From: an uncultured Clostridia bacterium
GTDB lineage: Bacteria > Bacillota > Clostridia > Christensenellales > UBA1242
NCBI GenBank assembly: GCA_947584415.1
Contig: CANPWN010000003.1
Location: 28,860-92,859, forward strand
Direction: 5' to 3'
DNA: 64,000 nt
Shown here: positions 22,190 through 35,158 of the stretch, piece by piece
Numbering within the stretch: the stretch's first letter is position 1
Layout: each line of letters begins with the position of its first letter
Notes under the pieces: model-generated
Seen by the model: only the letters and a program-made list of their open reading frames with translations
What the model was told of the DNA's origin: nothing
Database searches by the model: none
Program-made: the position numbers and the translations under genes

Positions 22190-22446
22190 ATCCTTAATTA
22201 TTCAAAAATAATGAAAAAATTGCAGAAAAATAATATATTTTTATAAAAAAATCATTAAAATTATTAAATTATGCTTTTTATCCCTTATTTTTAAAGGCAA
22301 AAAAATTGTTTGAGGCGAAGACCTTCTTTTAATGTTATATTAAAATAAATATAATTATATATAATATTTACACATAATTTATTTTGATTTTGCAAAGAAT
22401 TATGCTAGAATTATTTTGTCAAAAAATGACAGAAGAGGTAAGGTTT

Positions 22447-25400
22447 ATGAACAAGTTGAAATCAGTTTTGAGTTTTACTTTTCTAGCAGCGGCAGTCATA
22501 GGTGTTGGCTGCGGAGGTATGTTGTGTTCTGCCCCACCAAGAGCAAACATGACCGTTTTTGCAGACTATGTTGATGACACGGTCAATGAAACCGTGCTTG
22601 ATGACTATTTTGTTGTTGACGGGCTAACCCAAGGCACATTTTTTCATAAAACTGCAAGTGACACTGGCTTCAGCGTCAGATTAAACACAGAGAAAGCCGA
22701 AGTCGCAAATGATGATAACGAAACGAGTCCTAATTTCAAATATTATTACTCAGTCCCTGGTGCAAGTCCAACGACATATTATTACTTCCTCGTCAACGCC
22801 GTAACCTTTTCAATTGATGGAGTGACCATCCCAGACAAAAAGGCAAGCGGAAATGACATTGGCTTTGACACTTCCAACCTTATCCTTAACTCCACCGGCA
22901 GTACTGACTTTCTTGATGCCGGCGACAATGTTACATCTCAAACAATCAATTTTAAAGTTGTTTATGAAAAAGGTGGAAAAACAAGAATATCTCAACCAGT
23001 TGCAGGTGAGAACGACTATTTGACGACCGAAAATAAATTATCACCAACACCTCAGCGAACAGTTTATCTTGGCGACACCTTCACAGACAGTGAAGGGCGC
23101 GAGCGCTCAACTGAAGGAAAACTTGAAATCAGAATAAGTTACTCTTTCGTAATTTCGGAACAAATTGCAGTGGGGAGAAACTCCGAAAAATTTGTTGGCA
23201 CAGAAACTCCACTCACCCCTGCCATTATCCGAACACTTTACTTAAACGAAGACAACTATGTCACACAATTAAATGAGCCAAAACTTGAGTATGACACAAA
23301 CACTTTGACAAGAACAAATGTGACAACAAGCGAGGCGGCAACACATAAATTTAATTATTTTTACAACTATCAATCAAATCAAATCCCTTGGATAAGTTAT
23401 AACCCAAATTACATAAGGCTCAGCGTAACAAAAACACAAAACAACGCAACCATTTCCGACACCATTGTCTATGACCCAGATGACAAAAAGATTAACAAAG
23501 ATGCAAACGGCAACGAGCATATCCCTTCTTTCTTGTATGACATTAAGGAAGAGGAAAATGGCAATTTGAAAGTTTACTTTAATGATGTTGGACAATATGG
23601 TCTTGCCATTGACTTTGTGCATATTAACACAAACGACAAAACAACCTATGTTGTTGACAGGGCAATCAAAGGGCAGTTATATCAAAATGTTTATATCTTT
23701 GGTGCTCAAGCCTTTTTCACTAACCGTGCAGAAAACAAGCAAAGTGAGTTTAAAGATGTTGAAAATTTCGCTGCAACCATATCGGCTGATATAACTTCCT
23801 ATTTGAAGGACAATAAATACGCCTCACTTCTGCCAAGCGGCGCAGAAACAAACGAACATGATGCTGAAGGCTCATGCACTTGTGCAGACTGCACAATGAA
23901 AAAACTTGTTGCACAAATAAACACAGACAAAATTAACATTGTATCAACAAATCAAACTCCGGTCAAATTCGCCTTCAACCTTAACTCTCAAAACATTTCC
24001 GTTTACTCAAAACTGGAAAATGATGATAAAGGTTGGCAGCGTTCCGCTGAAAGCGTGACAAAAACATTTAGCAACCCTGGAGAATACTTTGTTAGATTAA
24101 GTTACAGTTTTGCCCCTCACACAACTTTAGACGGAGCGGCAAGTGATGCAACTTTTACACAATATTTTTACTTCAAAATCAACAAGCCTGTTCCAGTTAT
24201 CAAAATTTATGCTGTTGACAAAAACAACACTGAAAAAGAGTTGATGTCAAAAGATTACACCAACGCCGAAAGAGTTAAAATCATCTATGAAAACTATGGC
24301 GGCAAGTTTGACAGCGAAGCAACTTTTGAAATTTCAAAAAAGGATTTCAAAAACCCAAGTCAAAGTTTTGAAAACAGACCTTTTACTTTTAGAGTTACAA
24401 CTCGCCAAGATGCAAGCGGAAACGAATATCAATGTGGCGAATATGTGGAAGAAGGAGAAGGAACTTACACAGTTTCCACCTACTACTCTTTTGAAGGCGT
24501 TAAACAAAAAGTTCCTGTTACAAAAAGTTTTACAATTGACAGAGAAGCAATTGACGCAATTGAACCTATAAACGCTTACACTGTGCAAACTTATGGCTTG
24601 AATAAGGAATATCAAAGCGACCCAACACCAATTTCAGATGCCACAAACCAACCTTTCATTTTAACTTGGCAACAAACAAAACGCAGCGGCGCAACAACAA
24701 ATGCCTATGTTAAATATTATCCACTTCAAAAGAACAATATCTATTCCTCTAACGGCAATCTTAGCGGGATGATACAAAGTTTCTTGGGAACATTTCAATC
24801 TCTTGCAACAGACAAATCTTTAAACTTTAGGCAAAATGCAAGTTGGGACAAATATGACAACGCCACTGCAGTGAGAAATGGGGTTATCCCAAATTACTAT
24901 GTCAAATCTGACGCCGGACTTTACATCTTCCAAATTGTTGACCAAGCAGGAAACACCGCTGTCAAGATTGTTTTATTTGATGACAGCACTCCTTACTTTG
25001 CAATGTATAAAGCGGGCAGCAGCAGTGGTGAAGCCGGCGGCTACTCCATTGTAAGCACTTATTACACAACCTCAACAGACGCAACAGTTTACTGGGGTGA
25101 AAAGAAAGCAATTTTCATTGATTATGACCCAAATAGCAATGATGTTGCGGCCGACAGAAATGGTGACGAAAGCGAAAACTCCCCTGTATACCAAGCACTT
25201 ATGAACTTCTTTAATGGCAAAACTCACAACTATTCCCTGCCACAAATTGCAGATGCATACAAGGGTGATTACTACGAAGTTGAACTTGAAGATTATGCTT
25301 CATACAAAGGGCTAAGCGGAAAATATGAACCTATCAACGCATCTTCAATGGAAATTCAATCTTCCTTCAAGGTTTATTACACGGGAGATGAAAGCGTAAT

Positions 25401-28400
25401 AAATTATTACTATTCAACCAGCGACAATGTGAACAACTATGTTTTGAAAGTTAAAGAGGACGGCTCAACGGAAAGAGTTGTTTCAATCAATGGCACAACC
25501 ATTGAAAATGAAGGAACACTTAAGGAAGCAAAGGTTTACAAACGCTCAGTCAATGGTGAAAACACCGCTTATTACTATAGCGCTCCAATTTCCTCTGACA
25601 CAAATCTTCACAAAGTTTACAGCACTGAAGTTGTGACAAAGCCTGCAAATTTTGAAAACTCCGAATTTAAGGAAGTTAACTTTGTGGATATGGAAGGCAC
25701 TTATGTCTTCCTGCTCAGAGATAAGTCCAACACACTTGGAAGAGATTACCCTAAGGACTCAAACGGTTACAGCGAAGAGGCCTTCTTGAATCATGCGTCT
25801 GCATATCAATATGTCAAAGTGACGGGAGATGTTTCAGGGACAAAAATTTACTTCACAGACGGAGATGACACCATTGAATTGACATACGCGGCATTTTCAA
25901 ATTCCGGTGTGACTGAAAATGACGAAGCAAAAAATCTGTCCTTTAGGGAAAGTTACTATGAGCCAACCTGCATACAAAAAGTGTTGTCAGTTTCATTTAC
26001 GCCAACCACAACAACCTCTGCAGGAAAAACACAAATTGACAAGGTTACACTGCAATACTTCCCTTATGAAACACAAAAGTATGCACATTTGAATGCTTGG
26101 GGAAATCCTGTTGTCGAATTCTATCAAACGCTTTCCACAGTTGAAACAGAACCTATTGTGCTTTATGATTATAAAAATGGAAGTGGTGATGCAGAATCCT
26201 CAGAAGAACTTACTTTCAGCATCAATGTTTCTTCACAAATGACCAAGGCTGGAAAATACATCCTCAAGAGAACTTATGTCACAGGCGAAGGCTATATCAC
26301 CGGCAGTTTTGACTATGACCAAAGAACACTGACCGCCCTTGTTGACAGATACAATGTTCTTTCTGAACAAGCGTCTGTTGAATATGTGGAAAACATCCGA
26401 ACATATCAAAATGTTAATGGATTAACACTTCAAACCCGCGTTATTGAAAACATTTTGGAAGTTACTGTTGTGGGCGAAACGAATTTCCCAGACAACCCAA
26501 CCTTTAAATTTTATGCAAAAAACGGCGAAGAAGAAACCGAACTTAAATTAAGCCAAATCAATGCAAACATTGGATACTACAATCTTGTCAGCGAAGAAGA
26601 CAGCAAAAAGCCTGACATTATCCTTGACACAAGCGCAATTGTTGACTATGTTTTGAAAGTTGGCGAAGATAAAATCCAAGATTACAGCGTAACACCAAGC
26701 AAATCTTACAGGTCTTTGGAAAGCGTTGTTGGCAGTGACATCTTCGTCAATATGTATGATGGCATGTCTGAGAACGGCGGGAGCCAAGTTTCCATTACCT
26801 TCCCTAATTACAGCGGAATTTTGCCTTCTGGAGACTCTTTCTACACAGACAACAAATCAGATTGGGACCCAATTCATGATGAAACAGCAAGCAAGTTCAC
26901 AACAAACAAACTTCCTGTTTCACTTTACATTCCAAGCGTTAAATACACTCTTTACAACTTAGGACAATGGGATGACGCAATTGAATATTCTTCAGTTTTA
27001 AATGAAACCCTAAATTACTATGACAAAACCTACACAAATTCAGTAATCAATTCCTATGAACTGCGTGCTGAAATCACCGTGTTTGACAACGAAGGAAACA
27101 TAATCAAATATTATTCAAATGGCTCAACTTACAGTGGTTTCTTAAAATTCGTCGACGATAAAGGTCAAGATGTTTCTAACTTTACAACCGCCGGAGTTTA
27201 CATTGTCAACATCTCGCAGGGCAACTATTCTGAGGGTGTCTCTGCAAATAGTTTCAAGAAAAACTATCAGTTCTCTTTCACCGTGCTTTCCTCCTCGCCT
27301 GAATTTAGCATCTCTGCAAATGGTGCTCAACTCAACTCACTTCAAGACCGTTCCCAAAATGAAGTTAAGGAAATTTATTACACAAACGCAAGTGACATAA
27401 GAGTTTCTTGGAACGACACGGACAGCCCTTACATTGCGAACATTGACAAAACTCAAATAAGACTTATCATTATGCAAGCAACATACAAAATCAGCATTGT
27501 TGATAATAAAGTTTCCGTTTTCAATGATACAAATGATGAACTTCCGGATTTTGAAGTCGGGATGTCCTATTCAAAAACGGGCAACCAAAACAGGCTGATT
27601 ATCAACCTGTCCGCGCTAGACGCTTACTACAACGGCAGCGAAGTTGACATCACCATGCAATTTGAAAATCACAACTCTGACTATTACTCGACAAAAACAA
27701 AGGCCATTTACATTGACCTTGCCGCTGACGCAACTTCCCTCAACCCACTCATTGACAAACTTCCTTCATCTTCAGCCTTAACACTTGACCGCAGCACTTT
27801 GAGAAGATACAAGGATGCAAGCGGCGGCGACATCACAACGGGCAACCCGAATAACGACAACTTTGTTGCTTCTTACAACATCTCTCAAGATGCAACCAGC
27901 CCACTTTATAGATACAGTTACATGGTTGATTCAAATTTCTTCATTACTTTGCGCGACAAGGTTATGGCAAATGCAAACATCACTTCGCCACAGGACTATG
28001 TTCAAGCAGGCTGCGGCGCTTGGGAAGCATATTACAGAATTGTTGACAACCCTTACAACACCACCTCTGAAACAAGTGACGAAGAAACATCCTATGAAAA
28101 CTTTATTCCATCAACCTTTAACAACATCACAGATTCAATTCCTTCAACTGCGGGCGACTATGTTGAAGTGGTTGAACGTGACCGTGCTGGAAACATGACA
28201 ATTTACTTGGTTTACCTTTATGACCAAGACCAAACTGACGAAGGGCAAGAAGGCTCTTATCAGGGCATTGAAATCAAAGATGAAAGCACCTTTAAACTTG
28301 CAAGTGATGCCCAAATTGCCACAGACAAACTCAGCCTTTACGCATCAACCAGCACAACCATTTCTCGTTTCAACTTCTTGGGTGATGAGTGGATAAGATT

Positions 28401-31400
28401 TGCTGTTAATGATGAAGAATACTTGCTCTCACCAATTATTCCTCAAGGCAATGTTTTCCATCTGCCAAACACAACAACTTCAATAAGTTTGAATTCTGTT
28501 CTTTCTTCCTTTAGTTCATCAACAGTGCCAATTTCCATCAGAGTTCTTAACAGAGCCACCGGCGTTTGGCACAATTTCACCATCACGCTTTTAAATGAAG
28601 TTGCGCTTGTGACAACGCTTTCAAACTCTGACTCCGAATACATTTCAATCTCATATTCCAATGCGGTGTATCCAGTCAATGTTTCAATCTTCCAGCAAAC
28701 AATACAAAATGAACAAGCCGTTCTCACTGCAAACCTATCAAACAACCCTAACAAACTTGAAAACCTGACAAATGCAGATTACACATATCTGTCAGGCTGG
28801 GCAAATAAAGACGGCATAACCGTTTCTGTGGACGCAGCGACAAACCGCATAGTGTTCAGATTTAACCGCAACCCTTCAGTTGGTGTTAAAGTTAGATATG
28901 AAATTGAAGATAACTTTGGCAATATCTTAAAGCCAGCGCACATCTTTGGTATTGTGCAGCCAAACGAAATCACGAGCAGCGGAAATATTTATCAAACTGT
29001 TGTCAATGACTTCACAACTGGCAACCAAAACGAAATTTATTATATTGCAACCAAAAATTTGGTTTACAGTTTCAACAACCTCATACACAATGTTACTGTT
29101 GAAAAATGGGATAACATCCGCGGAAGATGGTCATCAGACGCTTCAGTTTTACTTCCTAATGATTACATTTCACGAACAACCGACAATATCACAACTTACA
29201 CCTTTGCCCCTCAAAATGACACTTTTAATCAAAAGTTTAGGTTGATTGTCAATGAATTGGACGGAACAGAACAAACAAATGTTAAAACCGTTTACTTGCA
29301 ACTATATCAAGTTCTGCCACATCTTTTGGATAAACTTGAAAACGCAAATGACTATCTTTCAACTTTCACCATGACGGACTCCTCAGGCATCAACATAACC
29401 AAAGAAGTTTTGGTGGACAGAAACTCCGAAAATGTTTTCATCAATGGCAAAACTTACTCCGTTTCTTTGGCCGGAATAACCTTTGCAAAGAGCATTAGAT
29501 TGACTTTCACTGACCCAGCGCAATTTGCCTTCCCTTACAGCATTTACATATATAAAGAAGATGGCTCGCTTGGTGAAGACTTTGTGCCAATCAACTCTGG
29601 AAGTAGATTTGCAGAAAGCGGCGTTTACTACATCTTGTTCAAATATGACGAACTGTTGTTGTATGAGGACAGAGTTTACAAAGTTGAAATTCTTGACTCC
29701 AATAATGAATACTACCGCGTTACAAACAATGGACATGTTGTAAACCGCGCCGGAGCATATTACAATGATGGCTCAGTTGATAACCCTGAATATTACATTG
29801 TCAATGTTAAATATCCAGACGAAAGCCGTGCAATTGAAATTGTTCCAAACACCTATCAAAAAATTGTTTCTTACTTCATCTCAGAAAAACCAGAAGAACA
29901 AAGTCGTGAAGTGGTAACTTTGCAGTATGTTGTTTCAAATGTGGGAAGAAATGGTGACCAGCCTCTTGAACAGGGACTTCATAAATTCTTCAAAAAAGTC
30001 TTTATCACCTTTGTTCCTCCAACACAATCTCCTGTTGGCACAATGTATTTGACCTACAACTTCTCTGACATGCCTATCCCTGATTCAATAAATGATAAAA
30101 GTTCTTACACAGCAGTGCCACCAGACCCAGGAATTGAATCAATCAAACTTGTTTACTCCAAAAACAGAGGAATTGACAGCAATTTGATTAATCTTTCCGT
30201 GCTTAAAGATGGCGTGCCTTACACCCCAACAATCAAGCAAATGGCAACCGGTGACGGCGAAGAAGAACTTATGTATGCTGAATTTTCAATCTCCGGCACT
30301 TACACAATTTCATTTACAGATGTTGCGGGCAACAGGCAAATGTTTGCAACTGGCTTAACTCAACAATCTTACGAATTTAATCTTGTGCTGTTAAAAGATG
30401 TTTCGTTCTTCATGACCTACACAGATGTTGACGGAAATGAACAAAACACTGACCCAATTCAAAAAGGCGTGTTCAATAGCGAAGTGACACTTTCAGTTAT
30501 CAAAAAGTTTAATTCGGTTTATTACACTCAAGCATCTGTCGGAGAAAAAGACTCCCTCATCCATGTTACCAGAAACGGCGTGCCTTACACTAATTATGAA
30601 TACTCCTCAAACGAAACACTTTCTTCCTTCAAGTTCTCAAAACCGGGATATTACTCCGTTTACTTCTCCGCAACCAGCCTGGCAACCGGACTTGAACTGA
30701 GAGAAACCGTTTACACCTTCGCAATTGTCGAGCCTGAAGAGTCAAGATATGCGTTTGAATTCTCACCTTATCAGAGTTATTATGTTCTCTCAATCATAAA
30801 AGGCAACAGCGGTGACATCACAAGAGATAATGACGGCAATTTGGTTGCAGACCTTCAAAATACCTTCCAAACCGCAGTTGGCAGTGATAACAAGCGCTAT
30901 TTGAAAAACTTTGTGACTTCAGTTTCAGATGAAGGTTTGCTTGGCAGCGGAAGATATATTGTGACAATTTCAACAAACAAAAACTTAAACCGTGACGATT
31001 ACTCCAAAGTCACAACCTTCTCCTTTGCATATTGGATAAATTCAGAGTCAGTGCCAATCAGCGTTTCAATCAACGAAGGCACTTCAACCAACAAAAACAT
31101 CTCTGTTTCCTTTAATGCAGAAAGAGTGTTCACTTCGGTCGGCGAGTGCGACATCTATGTTGGAACAAAAATATATCACATAAACAGTGAAACCATTGCC
31201 GAACTTGGCACTATCACCGAAACACTTTCAACAACAGGTGTTCACTACATCACCGTTATGTCAATGAGCGGCAGCGTTCTTTACAGATACAAAGTTGAAA
31301 AAACTGAACCTCTCAATGGCTGGGCAATTGCAGCAATTGTCATAGGCGGCATAGTGCTGATTGCAGTGATAATCATCATTGTTAAACTGAGAAAACGAAT

Positions 31401-31413
31401 CAAGGTTAAATAA
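22447..31413 (+). CDS. Giant (~2990 aa) secreted, C-terminally membrane-anchored beta-rich surface protein
   Basis: Signal-peptide-like start MNKLKSVLSFTFLAAAVIG after GAGGTAAGG. Recurring Ig-like GxY...D.AGN strands. C-terminal TM WAIAAIVIGGIVLIAVIIIIV then KLRKRIKVK. Confidence 0.85.
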   Translation: MNKLKSVLSFTFLAAAVIGVGCGGMLCSAPPRANMTVFADYVDDTVNETVLDDYFVVDGLTQGTFFHKTASDTGFSVRLNTEKAEVANDDNETSPNFKYYYSVPGASPTTYYYFLVNAVTFSIDGVTIPDKKASGNDIGFDTSNLILNSTGSTDFLDAGDNVTSQTINFKVVYEKGGKTRISQPVAGENDYLTTENKLSPTPQRTVYLGDTFTDSEGRERSTEGKLEIRISYSFVISEQIAVGRNSEKFVGTETPLTPAIIRTLYLNEDNYVTQLNEPKLEYDTNTLTRTNVTTSEAATHKFNYFYNYQSNQIPWISYNPNYIRLSVTKTQNNATISDTIVYDPDDKKINKDANGNEHIPSFLYDIKEEENGNLKVYFNDVGQYGLAIDFVHINTNDKTTYVVDRAIKGQLYQNVYIFGAQAFFTNRAENKQSEFKDVENFAATISADITSYLKDNKYASLLPSGAETNEHDAEGSCTCADCTMKKLVAQINTDKINIVSTNQTPVKFAFNLNSQNISVYSKLENDDKGWQRSAESVTKTFSNPGEYFVRLSYSFAPHTTLDGAASDATFTQYFYFKINKPVPVIKIYAVDKNNTEKELMSKDYTNAERVKIIYENYGGKFDSEATFEISKKDFKNPSQSFENRPFTFRVTTRQDASGNEYQCGEYVEEGEGTYTVSTYYSFEGVKQKVPVTKSFTIDREAIDAIEPINAYTVQTYGLNKEYQSDPTPISDATNQPFILTWQQTKRSGATTNAYVKYYPLQKNNIYSSNGNLSGMIQSFLGTFQSLATDKSLNFRQNASWDKYDNATAVRNGVIPNYYVKSDAGLYIFQIVDQAGNTAVKIVLFDDSTPYFAMYKAGSSSGEAGGYSIVSTYYTTSTDATVYWGEKKAIFIDYDPNSNDVAADRNGDESENSPVYQALMNFFNGKTHNYSLPQIADAYKGDYYEVELEDYASYKGLSGKYEPINASSMEIQSSFKVYYTGDESVINYYYSTSDNVNNYVLKVKEDGSTERVVSINGTTIENEGTLKEAKVYKRSVNGENTAYYYSAPISSDTNLHKVYSTEVVTKPANFENSEFKEVNFVDMEGTYVFLLRDKSNTLGRDYPKDSNGYSEEAFLNHASAYQYVKVTGDVSGTKIYFTDGDDTIELTYAAFSNSGVTENDEAKNLSFRESYYEPTCIQKVLSVSFTPTTTTSAGKTQIDKVTLQYFPYETQKYAHLNAWGNPVVEFYQTLSTVETEPIVLYDYKNGSGDAESSEELTFSINVSSQMTKAGKYILKRTYVTGEGYITGSFDYDQRTLTALVDRYNVLSEQASVEYVENIRTYQNVNGLTLQTRVIENILEVTVVGETNFPDNPTFKFYAKNGEEETELKLSQINANIGYYNLVSEEDSKKPDIILDTSAIVDYVLKVGEDKIQDYSVTPSKSYRSLESVVGSDIFVNMYDGMSENGGSQVSITFPNYSGILPSGDSFYTDNKSDWDPIHDETASKFTTNKLPVSLYIPSVKYTLYNLGQWDDAIEYSSVLNETLNYYDKTYTNSVINSYELRAEITVFDNEGNIIKYYSNGSTYSGFLKFVDDKGQDVSNFTTAGVYIVNISQGNYSEGVSANSFKKNYQFSFTVLSSSPEFSISANGAQLNSLQDRSQNEVKEIYYTNASDIRVSWNDTDSPYIANIDKTQIRLIIMQATYKISIVDNKVSVFNDTNDELPDFEVGMSYSKTGNQNRLIINLSALDAYYNGSEVDITMQFENHNSDYYSTKTKAIYIDLAADATSLNPLIDKLPSSSALTLDRSTLRRYKDASGGDITTGNPNNDNFVASYNISQDATSPLYRYSYMVDSNFFITLRDKVMANANITSPQDYVQAGCGAWEAYYRIVDNPYNTTSETSDEETSYENFIPSTFNNITDSIPSTAGDYVEVVERDRAGNMTIYLVYLYDQDQTDEGQEGSYQGIEIKDESTFKLASDAQIATDKLSLYASTSTTISRFNFLGDEWIRFAVNDEEYLLSPIIPQGNVFHLPNTTTSISLNSVLSSFSSSTVPISIRVLNRATGVWHNFTITLLNEVALVTTLSNSDSEYISISYSNAVYPVNVSIFQQTIQNEQAVLTANLSNNPNKLENLTNADYTYLSGWANKDGITVSVDAATNRIVFRFNRNPSVGVKVRYEIEDNFGNILKPAHIFGIVQPNEITSSGNIYQTVVNDFTTGNQNEIYYIATKNLVYSFNNLIHNVTVEKWDNIRGRWSSDASVLLPNDYISRTTDNITTYTFAPQNDTFNQKFRLIVNELDGTEQTNVKTVYLQLYQVLPHLLDKLENANDYLSTFTMTDSSGINITKEVLVDRNSENVFINGKTYSVSLAGITFAKSIRLTFTDPAQFAFPYSIYIYKEDGSLGEDFVPINSGSRFAESGVYYILFKYDELLLYEDRVYKVEILDSNNEYYRVTNNGHVVNRAGAYYNDGSVDNPEYYIVNVKYPDESRAIEIVPNTYQKIVSYFISEKPEEQSREVVTLQYVVSNVGRNGDQPLEQGLHKFFKKVFITFVPPTQSPVGTMYLTYNFSDMPIPDSINDKSSYTAVPPDPGIESIKLVYSKNRGIDSNLINLSVLKDGVPYTPTIKQMATGDGEEELMYAEFSISGTYTISFTDVAGNRQMFATGLTQQSYEFNLVLLKDVSFFMTYTDVDGNEQNTDPIQKGVFNSEVTLSVIKKFNSVYYTQASVGEKDSLIHVTRNGVPYTNYEYSSNETLSSFKFSKPGYYSVYFSATSLATGLELRETVYTFAIVEPEESRYAFEFSPYQSYYVLSIIKGNSGDITRDNDGNLVADLQNTFQTAVGSDNKRYLKNFVTSVSDEGLLGSGRYIVTISTNKNLNRDDYSKVTTFSFAYWINSESVPISVSINEGTSTNKNISVSFNAERVFTSVGECDIYVGTKIYHINSETIAELGTITETLSTTGVHYITVMSMSGSVLYRYKVEKTEPLNGWAIAAIVIGGIVLIAVIIIIVKLRKRIKVK

Positions 31414-31442
31414 AAAATGCGAACTTTCGTTCGCATTTTTTT
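31412..31442 (+). terminator. Intrinsic terminator after the giant gene
   Basis: AAAAATGCGAAC-TTTC-GTTCGCATTTTTTT. Confidence 0.85.
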
Positions 31443-31491
31443 AAAGGTTAAATACGGACTTGCATTTTCATTTTCAAAGATTAAATGTTGC

Positions 31492-31527
31492 CATGGGTTG
31501 TTTTTGTCCCATGCTGTATGTTATAAT
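31492..31527 (+). promoter_or_regulatory. Extended -10 promoter overlapped by an inverted repeat (candidate operator)
   Basis: CATGGG (31492)-N10-CCCATG (31508) spanning the -35 region, then TG-T-TATAAT (31522). Confidence 0.55.
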
Positions 31528-31539
31528 ATAAGTAGAGAG

Positions 31540-31836
31540 ATGAAAATGAACAAACACAAAAAACTTATCATTTTGTACGTGTATGATGTTTTAAAGCATG
31601 GCAGTGCGGAAGATTGCCTTTTTCACCAAACAAGCATTGCCAAGCAAATAAGTGAGTATTTTGGCATACCTTGTGACAGAAAGACAGTCGCGCGCAATAT
31701 TGGTTATTTGCGGGAATATGGCTGCGACATTGTCACAATCAAAGGTAAAGGTTGTTACATGAGGTCCTATCCCTATCTTGGAAAGACCATTTACACAAAG
31801 AAAAAGTTTGAGGAGGAAAATAATGCGACCAATTGA
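31540..31836 (+). CDS. Stand-alone winged-HTH resembling the N-terminal domain of WYL-family regulators
   Basis: KKLIILYVYDVLK..S.ED......I...I...FGI.CDRKTV.RNI..L...G.DI....GKGCY. ORF ends where a WYL domain would begin. Confidence 0.65.
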   Translation: MKMNKHKKLIILYVYDVLKHGSAEDCLFHQTSIAKQISEYFGIPCDRKTVARNIGYLREYGCDIVTIKGKGCYMRSYPYLGKTIYTKKKFEEENNATN

Positions 31837-32116
31837 ACCATTTGTTATGCCAAAATACAAATGCAAGAACTGCGGAAAAATTATTTCCGAGCCGCAACTG
31901 AAATCTTTTAAAGTTTCGTTTGGCGACTTTCAATGTTTTGGGCAATGGTGTTTGTGCGATGAGTGCTTGGAAGGTGGAATAACAAAGCCCAAATGCGTCC
32001 GCACACATAAATGGGTTTTGGGAAAAGATGACGCAACATTTTTAAGGGAACTTGCGGACCTGATAACAAAATATAAAGTCCGCGCAATAGATGTATTTTT
32101 TGAGGAGGAAGACTGA
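31823..32116 (+). CDS. Small Cys-rich (putative Zn-binding) hypothetical protein
   Basis: AGGAGG RBS. CKNC...C...CLCDEC...C. Overlaps the upstream ORF by 14 nt. Confidence 0.7.
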   Translation: MRPIEPFVMPKYKCKNCGKIISEPQLKSFKVSFGDFQCFGQWCLCDECLEGGITKPKCVRTHKWVLGKDDATFLRELADLITKYKVRAIDVFFEEED

Positions 32117-32574
32117 TGGAAAAAGAGTTTTTAAACAGAGTTTTTGAGTTTGGTGGCACATTAGGAAATTTGCAAGCGGAAAAAGGAAATTACAACGGCG
32201 TTTACATCTTTGTCCGCCCTGATGATTTCGGAAAGGTTATTTTTGGCGAAAGTAAGTTGAAGTTTTGGCGTGGCTACGAAGTTTCGTTGACCACTGAAGA
32301 ACTTCAAAATAAATGGGTCGAAAACGCAAATGTTTTGTATATAGGAAAATGCTCATCAAAAACAAAGTCACTTCAAAAACTTGTGCGAAAACACATAGAA
32401 TTTTGGAATGGCAAAGAGGTTTCCGCGTATGGTGGAAAAGCCATTGGCCAAATCCAAAACTGGAAGGATTTGCAAGTATGGTATTTGGAGTGTGCCGACC
32501 CGCAACAAGCAAAAACTGATTTATTGAAAGATTTTTTTGAAAAATATGGAAAATTGCCGTTTGCAAATTTGTAG
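32116..32574 (+). CDS. GIY-YIG-like protein
   Basis: GVYIF...VLYIGK pair and C-terminal F.EKYGKLPFAN. TGATG coupling and GGAGG RBS. Confidence 0.65.
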   Translation: MEKEFLNRVFEFGGTLGNLQAEKGNYNGVYIFVRPDDFGKVIFGESKLKFWRGYEVSLTTEELQNKWVENANVLYIGKCSSKTKSLQKLVRKHIEFWNGKEVSAYGGKAIGQIQNWKDLQVWYLECADPQQAKTDLLKDFFEKYGKLPFANL

Positions 32575-32588
32575 TTAAAAGGGTGAGC

Positions 32589-33257
32589 ATGAAAAATCAT
32601 AATTTTAGCATCAAAATTCTCGGCAGCGGCATGGGAGGGATAAACATCATAAAGCCCTTTGCCAAAGTGCCTTTGAAAAATGTTGAGTGTTTGGATATGC
32701 ACGCGGACTGGGCCTCTAAAATCACCAACAAATTTATTAAAATAGGAACAAAAACAACGAGGGGTTTAGGCACGGGCGCACTCCCACTTTTCGGCGAAAA
32801 GGCGGCAAGAGAAGATAAAGACGCGATCGTTAATGCAATATCTGGCTGCGACCTTTTAATTCTTGTTTCGGGGCTTGGAGGAGGAACAGGCTCTGGCGCA
32901 TCGCCTGTGGTGGCTGAAATTGCAAAAGAGCTCGACATTCCGACAGCCGCGTTTGTGACAACTCCACTTGGCTTTGAATCAAAAATGCGGCATCAAAATA
33001 CGCAAGTAAGCCTTGAAAAATTAAAAAGTTTTGCCGGCGTTTTAATTGTCTTTTCGTGTGAAGAATACATGTCGCACGTTCCGAAAAAAACTCCTATTGG
33101 CGAAATTTTTAAGCGAATTGATGAGATTTTGCAAAAAAACATCATAAAAATGATAGATTTTTGCAATTTGCAAGCTTCAAATGGCAAATCAGCTAAAGAG
33201 ATTTTGAAACTTATCAAATTTGATGATCCTTGCATAAATGTGTTTAAAACGATATAA
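32589..33257 (+). CDS. FtsZ/tubulin GTPase-domain-only paralog (~222 aa)
   Basis: IKILG.G.GG.N, IG...TRGLGTGA.P..GEKAA, tubulin signature GLGGGTGSGASPV, VTTP..FE. No recognisable T7 loop or C-terminal domain. Confidence 0.85.
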   Translation: MKNHNFSIKILGSGMGGINIIKPFAKVPLKNVECLDMHADWASKITNKFIKIGTKTTRGLGTGALPLFGEKAAREDKDAIVNAISGCDLLILVSGLGGGTGSGASPVVAEIAKELDIPTAAFVTTPLGFESKMRHQNTQVSLEKLKSFAGVLIVFSCEEYMSHVPKKTPIGEIFKRIDEILQKNIIKMIDFCNLQASNGKSAKEILKLIKFDDPCINVFKTI

Positions 33258-33285
33258 AAAATGCGGCGATAATTGCCGCATTTTT
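33256..33285. terminator. Bidirectional intrinsic terminator
   Basis: AAAAAATGCGGCGAT-A-ATTGCCGCATTTTT. Confidence 0.8.
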
Positions 33286-33946
33286 AAATTGCAATTTCGT
33301 CATCTTTAGATTCAAGCGATTTGTCAACAGAATTATCCACATATTCCTCGCCATAGATGTCGCTGATGTCTTGCGTCATCTCAATGTCCTTAATTTTTTC
33401 CTGTATAACTTTAACGTCCCCTAAATCATGTGCAAAATCAACTTGGCTGTGCATGAGCATAAGTTCAAATTGTGAAAATTCGCCAATGTTGCCTATTTTG
33501 AAAGCATGCCCTTGCGTCAAGATTTCTGAAAATGTCAAATTTTTAAAGTCAGTGATTGCATCCTTATATTCCTGCTGTGACACTGCATCTAACCCTTGGC
33601 TCAAAGCCATTTTTTGATATATCTTGTATCCTTTTTTAAACAAGTTTTTGTTGTTGATCTTGCGAATGCGTTTTGTAATCAAATTGCCAACAAACATCAC
33701 GCCTGCTCCACCCAAAAAAAGTGAACTTGCCGCTGCAAATTCGCCATCATGCAAACCTTTGATAAACATGCCAATTCCACCGCCTATCAAGCCAAGACTC
33801 AAAATGGAAAAAAAGAGATTGCCAGTAAAGTTTGCCAGCTTCATAGAGTGGTCAAAACTTTTTAATATTGGATAAAGCCTGTCAATTTTGTCTTCCTCAA
33901 TCGAAATGTCACCCATCATCTTTTGAACGATTTCATCATTGTCCAT
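33284..33946 (-). CDS. Hypothetical membrane protein (2 TM, acidic tail)
   Basis: AAGGAG RBS before MDNDE. Two Gly-rich hydrophobic helices. Confidence 0.7.
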   Translation of the reverse strand: MDNDEIVQKMMGDISIEEDKIDRLYPILKSFDHSMKLANFTGNLFFSILSLGLIGGGIGMFIKGLHDGEFAAASSLFLGGAGVMFVGNLITKRIRKINNKNLFKKGYKIYQKMALSQGLDAVSQQEYKDAITDFKNLTFSEILTQGHAFKIGNIGEFSQFELMLMHSQVDFAHDLGDVKVIQEKIKDIEMTQDISDIYGEEYVDNSVDKSLESKDDEIAI

Positions 33947-34004
33947 ATTTTCTCTCCTTGGCTTTATTATACGCTCTGAGCGTCTGAGTGTCAATATGGA
34001 AATT

Positions 34005-34034
34005 AAAAAAACAGGCCTTTCGGTCTGCTTTTTT
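34005..34034 (-). terminator. Terminator after rplA
   Basis: CAGACC-GAAA-GGCCTG hairpin plus T-tract on the minus strand. Confidence 0.65.
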
Positions 34035-34035
34035 G

Positions 34036-34719
34036 TTACATTGTTGTCACAATCTTAATTCCAGGGCCCATTGTTGAGCAAACGGAAATGTTTTTGAAAT
34101 ATTGTCCTTTTGCTGCCGCAGGTTTTGCCTTTTGAAGGGCTTCAATGACTGTGCGATAGTTTTCTATAAGTTTTTCTTTGCCAAAGCTAACTTTGCCCAA
34201 AATTACGTGAACATTGTTTGTTTTGTCCAAACGATATTCAACTTTTCCGGCTTTAACTTCGCTGATAGCCTTTTTAACGTCCATTGTAACTGTTCCGCTC
34301 TTTGGGTTTGGCATGAGGCCCTTAGGTCCAAGCACTCTTGCCACACGTCCAACAACGCCCATCATGTCAGGAGTTGTGATGCAGACGTCAAAGTCAAGCC
34401 ATCCTCCTTGAATTTTGGCAACAATTTCTTCTGCGCCAACAAAGTCCGCTCCGGCCTTTGTTGCTTCGTCCGCTTTGTCACCCTTTGCAATAACCAAAAC
34501 TTTCACGCTTTTGCCTGTTCCGTGAGGAAGCACAACAACGCCTCTAACCTGTTGGTCAGCGTTTCTTCCATCAACGCCAAGTTTAACATGAAGTTCAACT
34601 GTTTCATCAAATTTTGCTTTTGCTGTTTCAACCACATGAGCAAACGCCTCTTCTGGAGAATAACTGGTTGCTTTGTCATAGGTGGAAAGAGCAAGTTTCA
34701 TTCTTTTGCCTTTATTCAT
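34036..34719 (-). CDS. rplA: 50S ribosomal protein L1
   Basis: [42 protein letters not shown]. Confidence 0.98.
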
Positions 34720-34729
34720 ATCCTTCCTC

Positions 34730-35158
34730 CTACTCTGTGATTGTAACGCCCATGCTGCGTGCTGCACCTTCAATCATGCTCATAGCGGCCTCAATGCTTG
34801 CTGCGTTAAGGTCAGGCATTTTTGTGGTTGCAATTTCACGAACTTGCGCTTTTGTGAGTGAACCGACTTTTTGCTTGTTTGGTTTTGGCGAACCCTTTTC
34901 AAGTCCAAGCGCCTTTTTGATAAGAACGGCTGCTGGTGGGGTTTTCAGCACAAAACTGAATGACCTGTCTTGATAAATTGTTATCACAACAGGGATGATG
35001 AGACCTGCTTGAGATGCAGTTTTCTCATTAAATTCTTTGGTAAATGCCGCAATGTTTATCCCATGAGGTCCAAGTGAAGAACCCACAGGAGGTCCAGGTG
35101 TGGCTTTACCGGCTGGGAGTTGCAATTTTACAACTGCGCCAATCTTTTTTACTGCCAT
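34730..35158 (-). CDS. rplK: 50S ribosomal protein L11
   Basis: [33 protein letters not shown]. Confidence 0.98.

Follow-up and report, generated by a model that had tools for sequence, protein, structure and literature searches.

We report a gene for half of an FtsZ protein in DNA from an uncultured Clostridia bacterium of the Christensenellales (contig CANPWN010000003.1, positions 28,860 to 92,859; this whole stretch of 64,000 nt is called the window below). The gene, here termed half-FtsZ, encodes the nucleotide-binding domain of FtsZ and helix H7, followed only by a short tail:

32589..33257, + strand: half-FtsZ gene, 222 amino acids (aa); FtsZ nucleotide-binding domain and helix H7, then a family-specific helix-strand tail

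Half-FtsZ is a real, conserved accessory gene under purifying selection, and it is the last gene of a small cassette that also encodes a regulator and a putative DNA enzyme and that moves between chromosomal sites. Our tentative reading is that its product acts as a brake on the FtsZ of the host.

Results

Half-FtsZ stops short of the T7 loop

The open reading frame (ORF) could start at a GTG at 32583 or, six bases further on, at an ATG at 32589, and it ends with a TAA stop at 33257 on the + strand. Because the ATG follows the purine-rich AAGGGTGA, the 222-aa protein is the likely product (the GTG would make 224 aa); a database protein 98% identical to half-FtsZ likewise begins MKNHNF.

Residues 8-158 match the Pfam family PF00091 (Tubulin/FtsZ GTPase) with E 8.1e-28 and 98.4 bits, against a cut-off of 33. 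The NCBIfam ftsZ model TIGR00065 scores 155.3 bits, below its cut-off of 295.2, and covers only profile positions 16-206 of 353. A phmmer search of the PDB returned 52 distinct sequences at E <= 0.01; the best was FtsZ 4m8i (E 4.2e-37), residues 15-206 of the chain aligning with residues 3-191 of the query. In a profile-profile comparison of the short family described below with canonical FtsZ (probability 100, E 7e-58), the alignment ended at query residue 195, which corresponds to residue 199 of the host's own FtsZ and lies just N-terminal of the T7 loop. A first-pass annotation, made from the letters alone, had described a protein that keeps the GTP-binding domain, lacks the T7 loop and the C-terminal domain, and ceases to resemble FtsZ around H7; the PF00091 match and the profile alignment that stops before T7 bear out this description. 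The motifs that it had named (with TRGLG.GA for the second) are all present, namely GSGMGGIN at residues 12-19 (loop T1), TRGLGTGA at 57-64 (T3), GGGTGSG at 97-103 (T4) and FKRIDEIL at 174-181 (H7). Loop T2 of the window copy reads HAD, in place of the NTD found in canonical FtsZ and the short family alike.

The chain ends at residue 222, without the T7 catalytic residues, the C-terminal subdomain, the linker or the C-terminal peptide. Extending the FtsZ register without gaps puts G199, S201 and E204 at the positions of the NxDxxD motif, and the short-family consensus there is K-S-x-K-D/E. The Pfam PF12327 (FtsZ_C) had no match in half-FtsZ or in 15 short homologues, and its single match in the genome lies within the canonical ftsZ. 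The genome thus holds no frameshifted remainder, in agreement with the first-pass annotation. A split gene was ruled out on the same ground, no orphan FtsZ_C having been found in the genome. Half-FtsZ also differs from FtsZ proper in its position, being outside the division gene cluster and not beside ftsA. It is a member of the tubulin/FtsZ superfamily that fails four of the five features that define FtsZ. Against the PHROGs it gave only weak PhuZ-type matches (E 5.7e-4), and its neighbour genes gave none.

A family of short forms under purifying selection

The host genome (903 kb in 21 contigs, 99.4% complete) has a canonical FtsZ of 389 aa that ends in the C-terminal peptide IPAWLR; its gene is on a contig other than that of half-FtsZ and lies downstream of a 377-aa ORF read as a putative ftsA. 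Half-FtsZ is ~38% identical to this protein over residues 7-190. In a search of 5.8 billion proteins, its 15 best matches were 207-248 aa long, matched PF00091 only and showed 41-98% identity, with full-length FtsZ appearing from rank 16. When 1.84 billion representatives were searched with a family profile, the short forms scored 232-354 bits and single-copy canonical FtsZ at most 198. The long top scorers of that search (P0121, P0124, P0125 and P0126; 731-840 aa) were considered as possible short-form fusions and rejected; these predicted proteins, from public metagenomes, each contain two complete FtsZ globular units as tandem full-length repeats. The homologues of about 220 aa that the first-pass annotation had proposed to look for thus exist as a conserved family of 207-248 aa; the nearest relatives of half-FtsZ are of this length, under purifying selection, and not the full-length proteins that a recent truncation would have left.

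A maximum-likelihood tree of 53 rows and 194 columns, spanning the N-domain and H7, set all 17 short forms apart as one clan, behind a branch of length 0.6 with 100/100 support. Eight canonical FtsZs of the host genus form a separate 100/98 clade apart from them. Long terminal branches among the short forms (0.3-0.9) prevent the tree from placing their origin exactly. Ratios of nonsynonymous to synonymous change (dN/dS, Nei-Gojobori) were 0.27-0.39 in the four short-form pairs that had changed enough; the values of 0.48-0.79 from three near-identical pairs rest on 3-10 changes, too few to inform. A 98%-identical variant of half-FtsZ differs from it by an in-frame 4-aa deletion.

Across 16 short forms, the invariant or near-invariant residues shared with canonical FtsZ are G12, G14 and G17 in T1, G59, G61 and G63 in T3, the whole GGGTGSG of T4, P126 and E130 in T5, R134, and D178 in H7; the Phe/Tyr of H7 is also retained. 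R134 is the equivalent of S. aureus R143, counting along the phmmer alignment from the anchors N44, D46 and Q48 given in PMC8936486. Other residues are fixed only in the short family: an Asp in T1, a Trp after NTD, and Ser156.

Predicted structure and the C-terminal tail

The AlphaFold2 model of half-FtsZ is confident, with a mean predicted local distance difference test score (pLDDT) of 94.1 and a predicted template modelling score of 0.92. It comprises the FtsZ nucleotide-binding domain, a long H7 (residues 170-197), a short helix (202-208) and a strand (216-220). Foldseek matched it best to S. aureus FtsZ 4dxd (E 1.9e-19), and VIA-align superposed it on M. jannaschii FtsZ 1w58 with Z 29.7 and a root-mean-square deviation of 2.4 over 220 aligned residues.

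The first-pass annotation had seen a tail of ~35 aa unrelated to FtsZ. The end of similarity to FtsZ is confirmed, and the tail is nevertheless not mere junk: its ~30 aa are conserved across the short family (K-S-x-[KQ]-[ED]-I-L-K...), and both the helix 202-208 and the strand 216-220 are predicted with confidence. It is possible that the tail is a degenerate T7-H8-S7 of FtsZ. In the ungapped register the predicted helix coincides with H8, the strand comes close to S7 but a few residues after its canonical place, and hydrophobic residues are similarly spaced in the tail and in canonical H8/S7. The hhalign alignment does not extend into the tail, and VIA-align puts it on different elements of the C-domain depending on the chain.

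Half-FtsZ is rare and patchy

Among the matches listed in a survey of 151 genomes sampled from the genus, the short form occurred in eight, the host included (>= 270 bits, frames of 212-250 aa), and canonical FtsZ reached at most 202 bits. One genome (G126) has two copies, on C40 and C8, of 335 and 271 bits, and the copy at G155:C3:45550-46170 is interrupted by an internal TAA. No short form turned up in 16 genomes that represent other families in the order. When 185,579 species genomes were scanned with a pattern, at least 80 loci were kept, at least eight of them (L016-L023) short forms; seven of L016-L023 bear the label uncultured Clostridia bacterium, and the other is given as uncultured Christensenella sp. 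The remaining 72 have at most 42% identity and do not extend past residue 208, as canonical FtsZ would give.

Searches of other collections returned matches of the same kind. With tblastn, 50,697 phage records gave 16 matches, all at <= 40.7% identity, and 72,556 plasmid records gave 19, the 15 listed being likewise all at <= 40.7%; no short form was seen in either set, and the matched features, where annotated, are ftsZ. The short form was also not seen in IMG/VR (five loci, partial, <= 43% identity) or, at alignment level, in the JGI metagenomes (63 loci, <= 44% identity, none past residue 208). Four DNA runs from a single study, with the label rabbit gut metagenome, contain 55-71% of the words, and the sequencing runs listed as containing words include no RNA run. 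A rare, mobile and patchy distribution is as expected of genes of conflict or defence.

The half-FtsZ gene closes a mobile cassette

The other features of the cassette in the window are as follows.

31492..31527, + strand: putative cassette promoter/operator, recognized by ~70 bp of conservation, a palindrome and promoter-like hexamers
31546..31836, + strand: small winged-helix regulator, 96 aa from ATG 31546 (ATG 31540 also possible); first gene of the cassette
31823..32116, + strand: zinc-ribbon protein with four cysteines, 97 aa; stop codon overlapping the start of the gene that follows (TGATG)
32116..32574, + strand: GIY-YIG-like nuclease-domain protein, 152 aa, assigned by Pfam matches of homologues
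33257..33285, either strand: hairpin terminator with an 11-pair stem (5 G-C), listed on the - strand; A-run before, T-run after

We clustered the ORFs of nine loci, the window and L016-L023. Half-FtsZ is present in all nine as the last gene of the cassette, always directly after the DNA enzyme gene, with gaps of 9-15 nt or overlapping stops and starts. The small winged-helix gene is upstream in eight of the nine and was not found in L019. Two alternatives fill the middle. Six loci (L018-L023) encode a protein of 189-192 aa resembling uracil-DNA glycosylase (UDG), and three (the window, L016 and L017) have a Zn-ribbon/GIY-YIG-like unit, which is fused in L016 (261 aa), split into 97 + 152 aa with the TGATG overlap in the window, and recovered in L017 only as a 110-aa Zn-ribbon ORF.

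The regulator matches Pfam HTH_11 (E 0.002 in the window, 6.1e-5 in L016) and, weakly, the winged helix-turn-helix (wHTH) of BirA-type repressors (E 0.013-0.7); its homologues in the eight loci are 66-77% identical. The zinc-ribbon gene has GGAGGA before its ATG at 31823, and its product weakly matches the zinc ribbon of RNA polymerase subunit P (E 0.0014). The 152-aa protein of the window has no Pfam match of its own; of the 11 members of its family, seven match PF20815 (GIY_YIG_2; best E 1.6e-5) and four PF01541 (best E 7.6e-5). LYIGK, H93 and P-F-A-N are invariant in this family, and its neighbours in a protein atlas include GIY-YIG clusters, which we take as a lead only. The GIY-YIG-like clusters P0267 and P0268 are probably on the same contigs as the half-FtsZ clusters P0008 and P0010, since both pairs list longest contigs of 47092 and 2658 bp.

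On the evidence of its model, the partner in L018-L023 has a UDG-superfamily fold. The PF03167 match falls just under the cut-off (E 5.4e-5; 23.7 bits against 24.3), and the model (pLDDT 88.8) gave Foldseek matches of which all those shown belong to the UDG superfamily (TDG, MUG, family 4 UDG, SMUG1 and UdgX), the best being TDG 4jgc (E 3.1e-4, TM ~0.5). VGESxP, corresponding to motif A (GE..P), is invariant in these proteins.

Upstream of the regulator, ~70 bp can be aligned in six loci (the window, L016 and L020-L023), and the sequences are unrelated further upstream. In the window this segment holds the inverted repeat CATGGG-N10-CCCATG (31492-31513), which overlaps a -35-like TTGTTT (31498-31503) and is followed by TGnTATAAT (31519-31527). 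A consensus promoter scan did not list this putative promoter because its -35 matches at only 3/6 positions. At the other end, the clean stop and terminator that the first-pass annotation had placed after half-FtsZ are there, as the TAA and the hairpin 33257-33285. We read this hairpin as usable on both strands and so common to half-FtsZ and the next gene, which is convergent (33284-33994, - strand) and encodes a 236-aa membrane protein.

The surroundings of the cassette differ from locus to locus. ORFs outside it are not shared, so that the flanks are unlike in all nine, and Pfam found on 40 flanking ORFs ordinary chromosomal genes, together with a restriction-endonuclease domain in L019, an IS200 transposase in L020 and, in L017, an Xre-type HTH with DUF4268. 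Five genomes of the same genus share with the window the synteny of the giant surface-protein gene and rplA/rplK. The spacing from the giant gene to rplA is 247-1858 bp in these relatives versus 3360 bp in the window, and tblastn (1e-3) with the cassette proteins found none at this site in any of the five, where unrelated ORFs stand instead. The varying flanks together with these cassette-free syntenic sites make the cassette a unit that moves.

Neighbouring genes and variant loci

Across the genus, the gap between the giant gene and rplA (window 31413-34773, compared with L101-L110) measures 247, 966, 1407, 1858 or 3360 bp. Three of the genomes opened each have a different, unrelated ORF in it (212, 324 and 445 aa with repeats), and the 236-aa membrane protein at 33284-33994 (- strand) has no counterpart in the gap of the relatives. 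The giant ORF itself (window 22384-31413, + strand) encodes 3009 aa, with a hydrophobic anchor at the C-terminus. Pfam matched neither its first 1000 nor its last 1003 residues; over the last 350 aa, identity is 55-59% in four genomes of the genus and 35% in a fifth. A hairpin terminator follows it at ~31413-31443.

Some of the loci have features of their own. The half-FtsZ of L018 (799-1533) looks mosaic, with both ends resembling L021-L023 and the part between them, near the H6-H7 loop, resembling L019/L020, which suggests recombination between cassette variants. In L019, which has no wHTH gene, a 347-aa protein with a restriction-endonuclease domain (13-1056; PF19778, E 4.1e-32) is encoded upstream of the UDG-like and half-FtsZ genes. 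An IS200-type transposase directly follows the cassette in L020 (6829-8701), and then a 345-aa paralogue that joins Sel1 repeats to the Zn-ribbon/GIY-YIG-like unit. Directly downstream of canonical ftsZ is a gene (L001, 373-1197, - strand) for a 274-aa membrane protein that matches the sporulation peptidase SpoIIGA with E 4e-28 and 98.6 bits, below the cut-off of 209.6; this is notable in a genome of 0.9 Mb.

Discussion

A proposed brake on FtsZ

We propose, at a probability of roughly 0.38, that half-FtsZ binds nucleotide, docks by its nucleotide face on the T7 face of host FtsZ and caps or sequesters it, so that division stalls while the DNA enzyme acts. Binding of GTP or GDP is probable, since the nucleotide-contact motifs are largely kept (T1, T3, T4, T5, the R143-equivalent Arg, and H7). 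In the FtsZ filament four contacts have been described, to which the lower subunit gives the H6-H7 loop, T5, T3 and H1/H2 and the upper subunit H10, S9, H8 and T7 (PMC8936486). Half-FtsZ keeps all four regions of the nucleotide side and lacks the partner side (H10, S9, H8 and T7), which makes a capping or sequestering agent plausible; judged by its sequence, it would be a natural 'bottom-less' FtsZ subunit. Such a subunit would offer no catalytic T7 loop to its neighbour and no bottom face to the next subunit. Its nucleotide face would dock on the T7 (bottom) face of host FtsZ, either a monomer or a growing filament end, and elongation would be stopped by sequestration or capping. De-repression of the cassette would then pause cell division while the partner enzyme acts on DNA, and this combination would fit a module of defence, abortive infection or addiction. 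That such a subunit could cap or poison FtsZ filaments was already suggested in the first-pass annotation, whose interpretation is supported in part; the operon, for which any function must account, does not figure in it.

Work on FtsZ is consistent with this proposal in several respects. The growing end has been proposed to be the one that exposes T7 and meets the GTP-bound face of the incoming monomer, and bottom-interface mutants are toxic where top-interface mutants are not (PMC8936486). Gp0.4, SulA and MciZ inhibit FtsZ by occupying its synergy-loop (T7) face (PMC13423816; PMC9897490), and the natural ligand of that face is the very part that half-FtsZ keeps. When overexpressed, FtsZ1 of A. 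tumefaciens, a truncated paralogue, blocks division (bioRxiv 10.1101/2025.09.29.679267).

Several observations weigh on the other side. The short-family consensus shares with canonical FtsZ 0/7 positions of H1 and 4/11 of T2/H2, both of which meet the T7 loop of the neighbour, and the H6-H7 loop is variable within the short family. The window copy lacks the Asn and Thr of T2, and in S. aureus FtsZ the T2 Asn (N44) and D46 hold the waters of Mg2+ (PMC8936486). A second truncated paralogue of A. tumefaciens, FtsZ3, had no effect when overexpressed (bioRxiv 10.1101/2025.09.29.679267). A cap alone leaves the constant pairing with a DNA enzyme unexplained. Only some loci adjoin genes of defence or mobility type (the restriction-endonuclease domain of L019, the IS200 of L020), and PADLOC-DB 2.0 assigned eight cassette proteins to 0 families at E <= 0.01, a search that would miss an undescribed system. 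A complex prediction of the host's own FtsZ (residues 1-316, 27 rows) with half-FtsZ (16 rows) and two GTP scored 0.09 and 0.01 against a mark of 0.32; run without controls, it is not evidence either way.

The proposal can be extended to a new mobile defence or addiction cassette, in which de-repressed half-FtsZ would cap FtsZ filaments while an interchangeable glycosylase or nuclease attacks invading, possibly base-modified DNA; we regard this fuller version as rather unlikely. A LexA-type link to SOS was considered and set aside: lexA (TIGR00498) was not found in the 99.4%-complete host genome, and the cassette is outside any LexA regulon detectable with that query.

Other functions

Half-FtsZ might instead serve the partner enzyme, GIY-YIG nuclease or UDG-fold glycosylase, as a GTP/GDP-dependent switch or regulatory subunit and make no contact with the division machinery. 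We hold this to be unlikely; it would account for the invariable place of the gene directly after that of the DNA enzyme (gaps of 9-15 nt or overlapping stop and start) and for the drift of the filament-contact helices H1/H2 beside well-kept motifs of nucleotide contact. The residues fixed in this family only (the Asp in T1, the Trp after NTD and Ser156) also suit it, as does the tree, where half-FtsZ subclades track the type of partner: the UDG-linked copies form a 100/99 clade, and a 9-row clade with 98/98 support includes the GIY-linked copies of the window and L017, with the GIY-linked L016 outside it and partners seen only for the rows that represent loci. One module would, however, have to control two unrelated enzyme folds, and no regulatory GTPase comes anywhere near as close to half-FtsZ as true FtsZ does (E 4e-37). 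A decoy or sensor for phage inhibitors of FtsZ, which would soak them up or license the DNA-degrading partner in a form of effector-triggered immunity, seems to us less probable again. Phages commonly target FtsZ, there is a defence protein that senses Gp0.4 only when this is complexed with FtsZ (PMC13423816), and proven anti-phage effectors include the UDG-superfamily Brig1 (PMC11078745) and the GIY-YIG nuclease CMoRE (PMC12923530); fast evolution and a patchy distribution would also be in keeping. Yet the inhibitors whose site is known or modelled (Gp0.4, SulA and MciZ) bind the synergy-loop/C-terminal face that half-FtsZ is missing (PMC13423816; PMC9897490), and none of the eight cassette proteins had a PADLOC match.

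The order of a small wHTH gene and a tubulin-family GTPase gene behind a conserved palindrome recalls type III partition loci, so that half-FtsZ could be thought a filament-forming, partition-like module analogous to TubR/TubZ, with the wHTH on the palindrome and a GTPase polymer moving DNA. We hold this to be very improbable. GTP-driven polymerisation is not to be expected of a protein that has neither the T7 catalytic residues nor a second domain; TubZ (4xcq) is matched only with E 0.0023 over 36 residues (80-115), against 4e-37 for FtsZ; the loci are chromosomal, with no close copy in the phage, plasmid or IMG/VR collections; a DNA enzyme gene stands between the wHTH and half-FtsZ genes; and the wHTH gives only weak BirA-type matches, TubR not being among its PDB matches. 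Least credible of all is that a duplicated ftsZ was recently truncated or is decaying here as a pseudogene. The internal TAA of the G155 copy and the two T2 residues missing from the window copy could be signs of decay, but the short forms have a common end point, a conserved tail, dN/dS of 0.27-0.39, a clan of their own and a conserved operon, and no remnant of the C-terminal half was found downstream or elsewhere in the genome.

If capping or sequestration by half-FtsZ is true, the protein is an inhibitor of cell division carved from FtsZ itself and a ready-made probe of filament polarity and treadmilling. We know of no earlier natural division inhibitor derived from FtsZ. The cassette, which hops between chromosomal sites of gut Clostridia with very small genomes, ties half-FtsZ to a private repressor and to either a DNA glycosylase or a nuclease, and this fixed pairing points to an undescribed link between conflict at the DNA level and the control of division. 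Even if half-FtsZ is only a GTP-dependent regulator of the nuclease, the tubulin fold would be put to a new use in it.

Comparison with known systems

Our literature search found no description of a protein consisting only of the FtsZ nucleotide domain in Firmicutes, none of such a cassette and, among the papers listed, none joining 'FtsZ-like' with a defence term; a term search of the main text of a 2023 family survey (PMC9871819) gave no mention of truncated forms. Canonical FtsZ (TIGR00065) has the same nucleotide-binding fold and motifs through H7, and it has in addition the NxDxxD synergy loop, the FtsZ_C subdomain, the linker and the membrane-tether peptide, all of which half-FtsZ lacks. 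Howell et al. 2019 reportedly described FtsZ3 of A. tumefaciens as having only a partial GTPase domain. FtsZ1 and FtsZ3 of this member of the Hyphomicrobiales are, like half-FtsZ, extra truncated copies outside the cluster of cell-wall and division genes (dcw) (bioRxiv 10.1101/2025.09.29.679267). Unlike half-FtsZ, the Hyphomicrobiales paralogues still have the N-terminal peptide and the GTPase domain in full, together with a short linker, and they are vertically retained in ~70% of two families; no operon with a partner enzyme is reported for them (same preprint).

FtsZl1 and FtsZl2 are also divergent proteins of the FtsZ superfamily that coexist with canonical FtsZ, and FtsZl1 lacks the usual C-terminal domain (PMC2875224). 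According to Makarova and Koonin 2010, FtsZl1 aligns only to H5, is without T6-H7, has C-terminal regions of another kind, and occurs in vWA/OmpA operons (PMC2875224), whereas half-FtsZ aligns through H7, has 222 aa and neighbours a wHTH protein together with a Zn-ribbon and GIY-YIG protein or a UDG protein. The two alternative partners resemble in fold Brig1 (UDG superfamily) and, putatively, CMoRE (GIY-YIG). UDG-superfamily glycosylases (PMC11078745) and a GIY-YIG nuclease (PMC12923530) act against modified phage DNA, and S. tokodaii UDG, among the matches of our UDG-like model, is also the best match of Brig1 (PMC11078745). Neither of these two systems includes an FtsZ-like gene.

By analogy, half-FtsZ would share with MciZ, SulA and T7 Gp0.4 (and also MipZ and MinC) a common action, the blocking of the synergy-loop face of FtsZ. 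MciZ, SulA and Gp0.4 are small peptides or unrelated proteins with no relation to half-FtsZ in sequence or fold; half-FtsZ, unlike them, would be a self-derived dominant-negative subunit. The engineered bottom-interface mutants of FtsZ, which are toxic and block division, like half-FtsZ combine an intact nucleotide face with a defective bottom face (PMC8936486). Those are point mutants of the full-length protein made in the laboratory, whereas half-FtsZ is a natural deletion of the whole bottom half.

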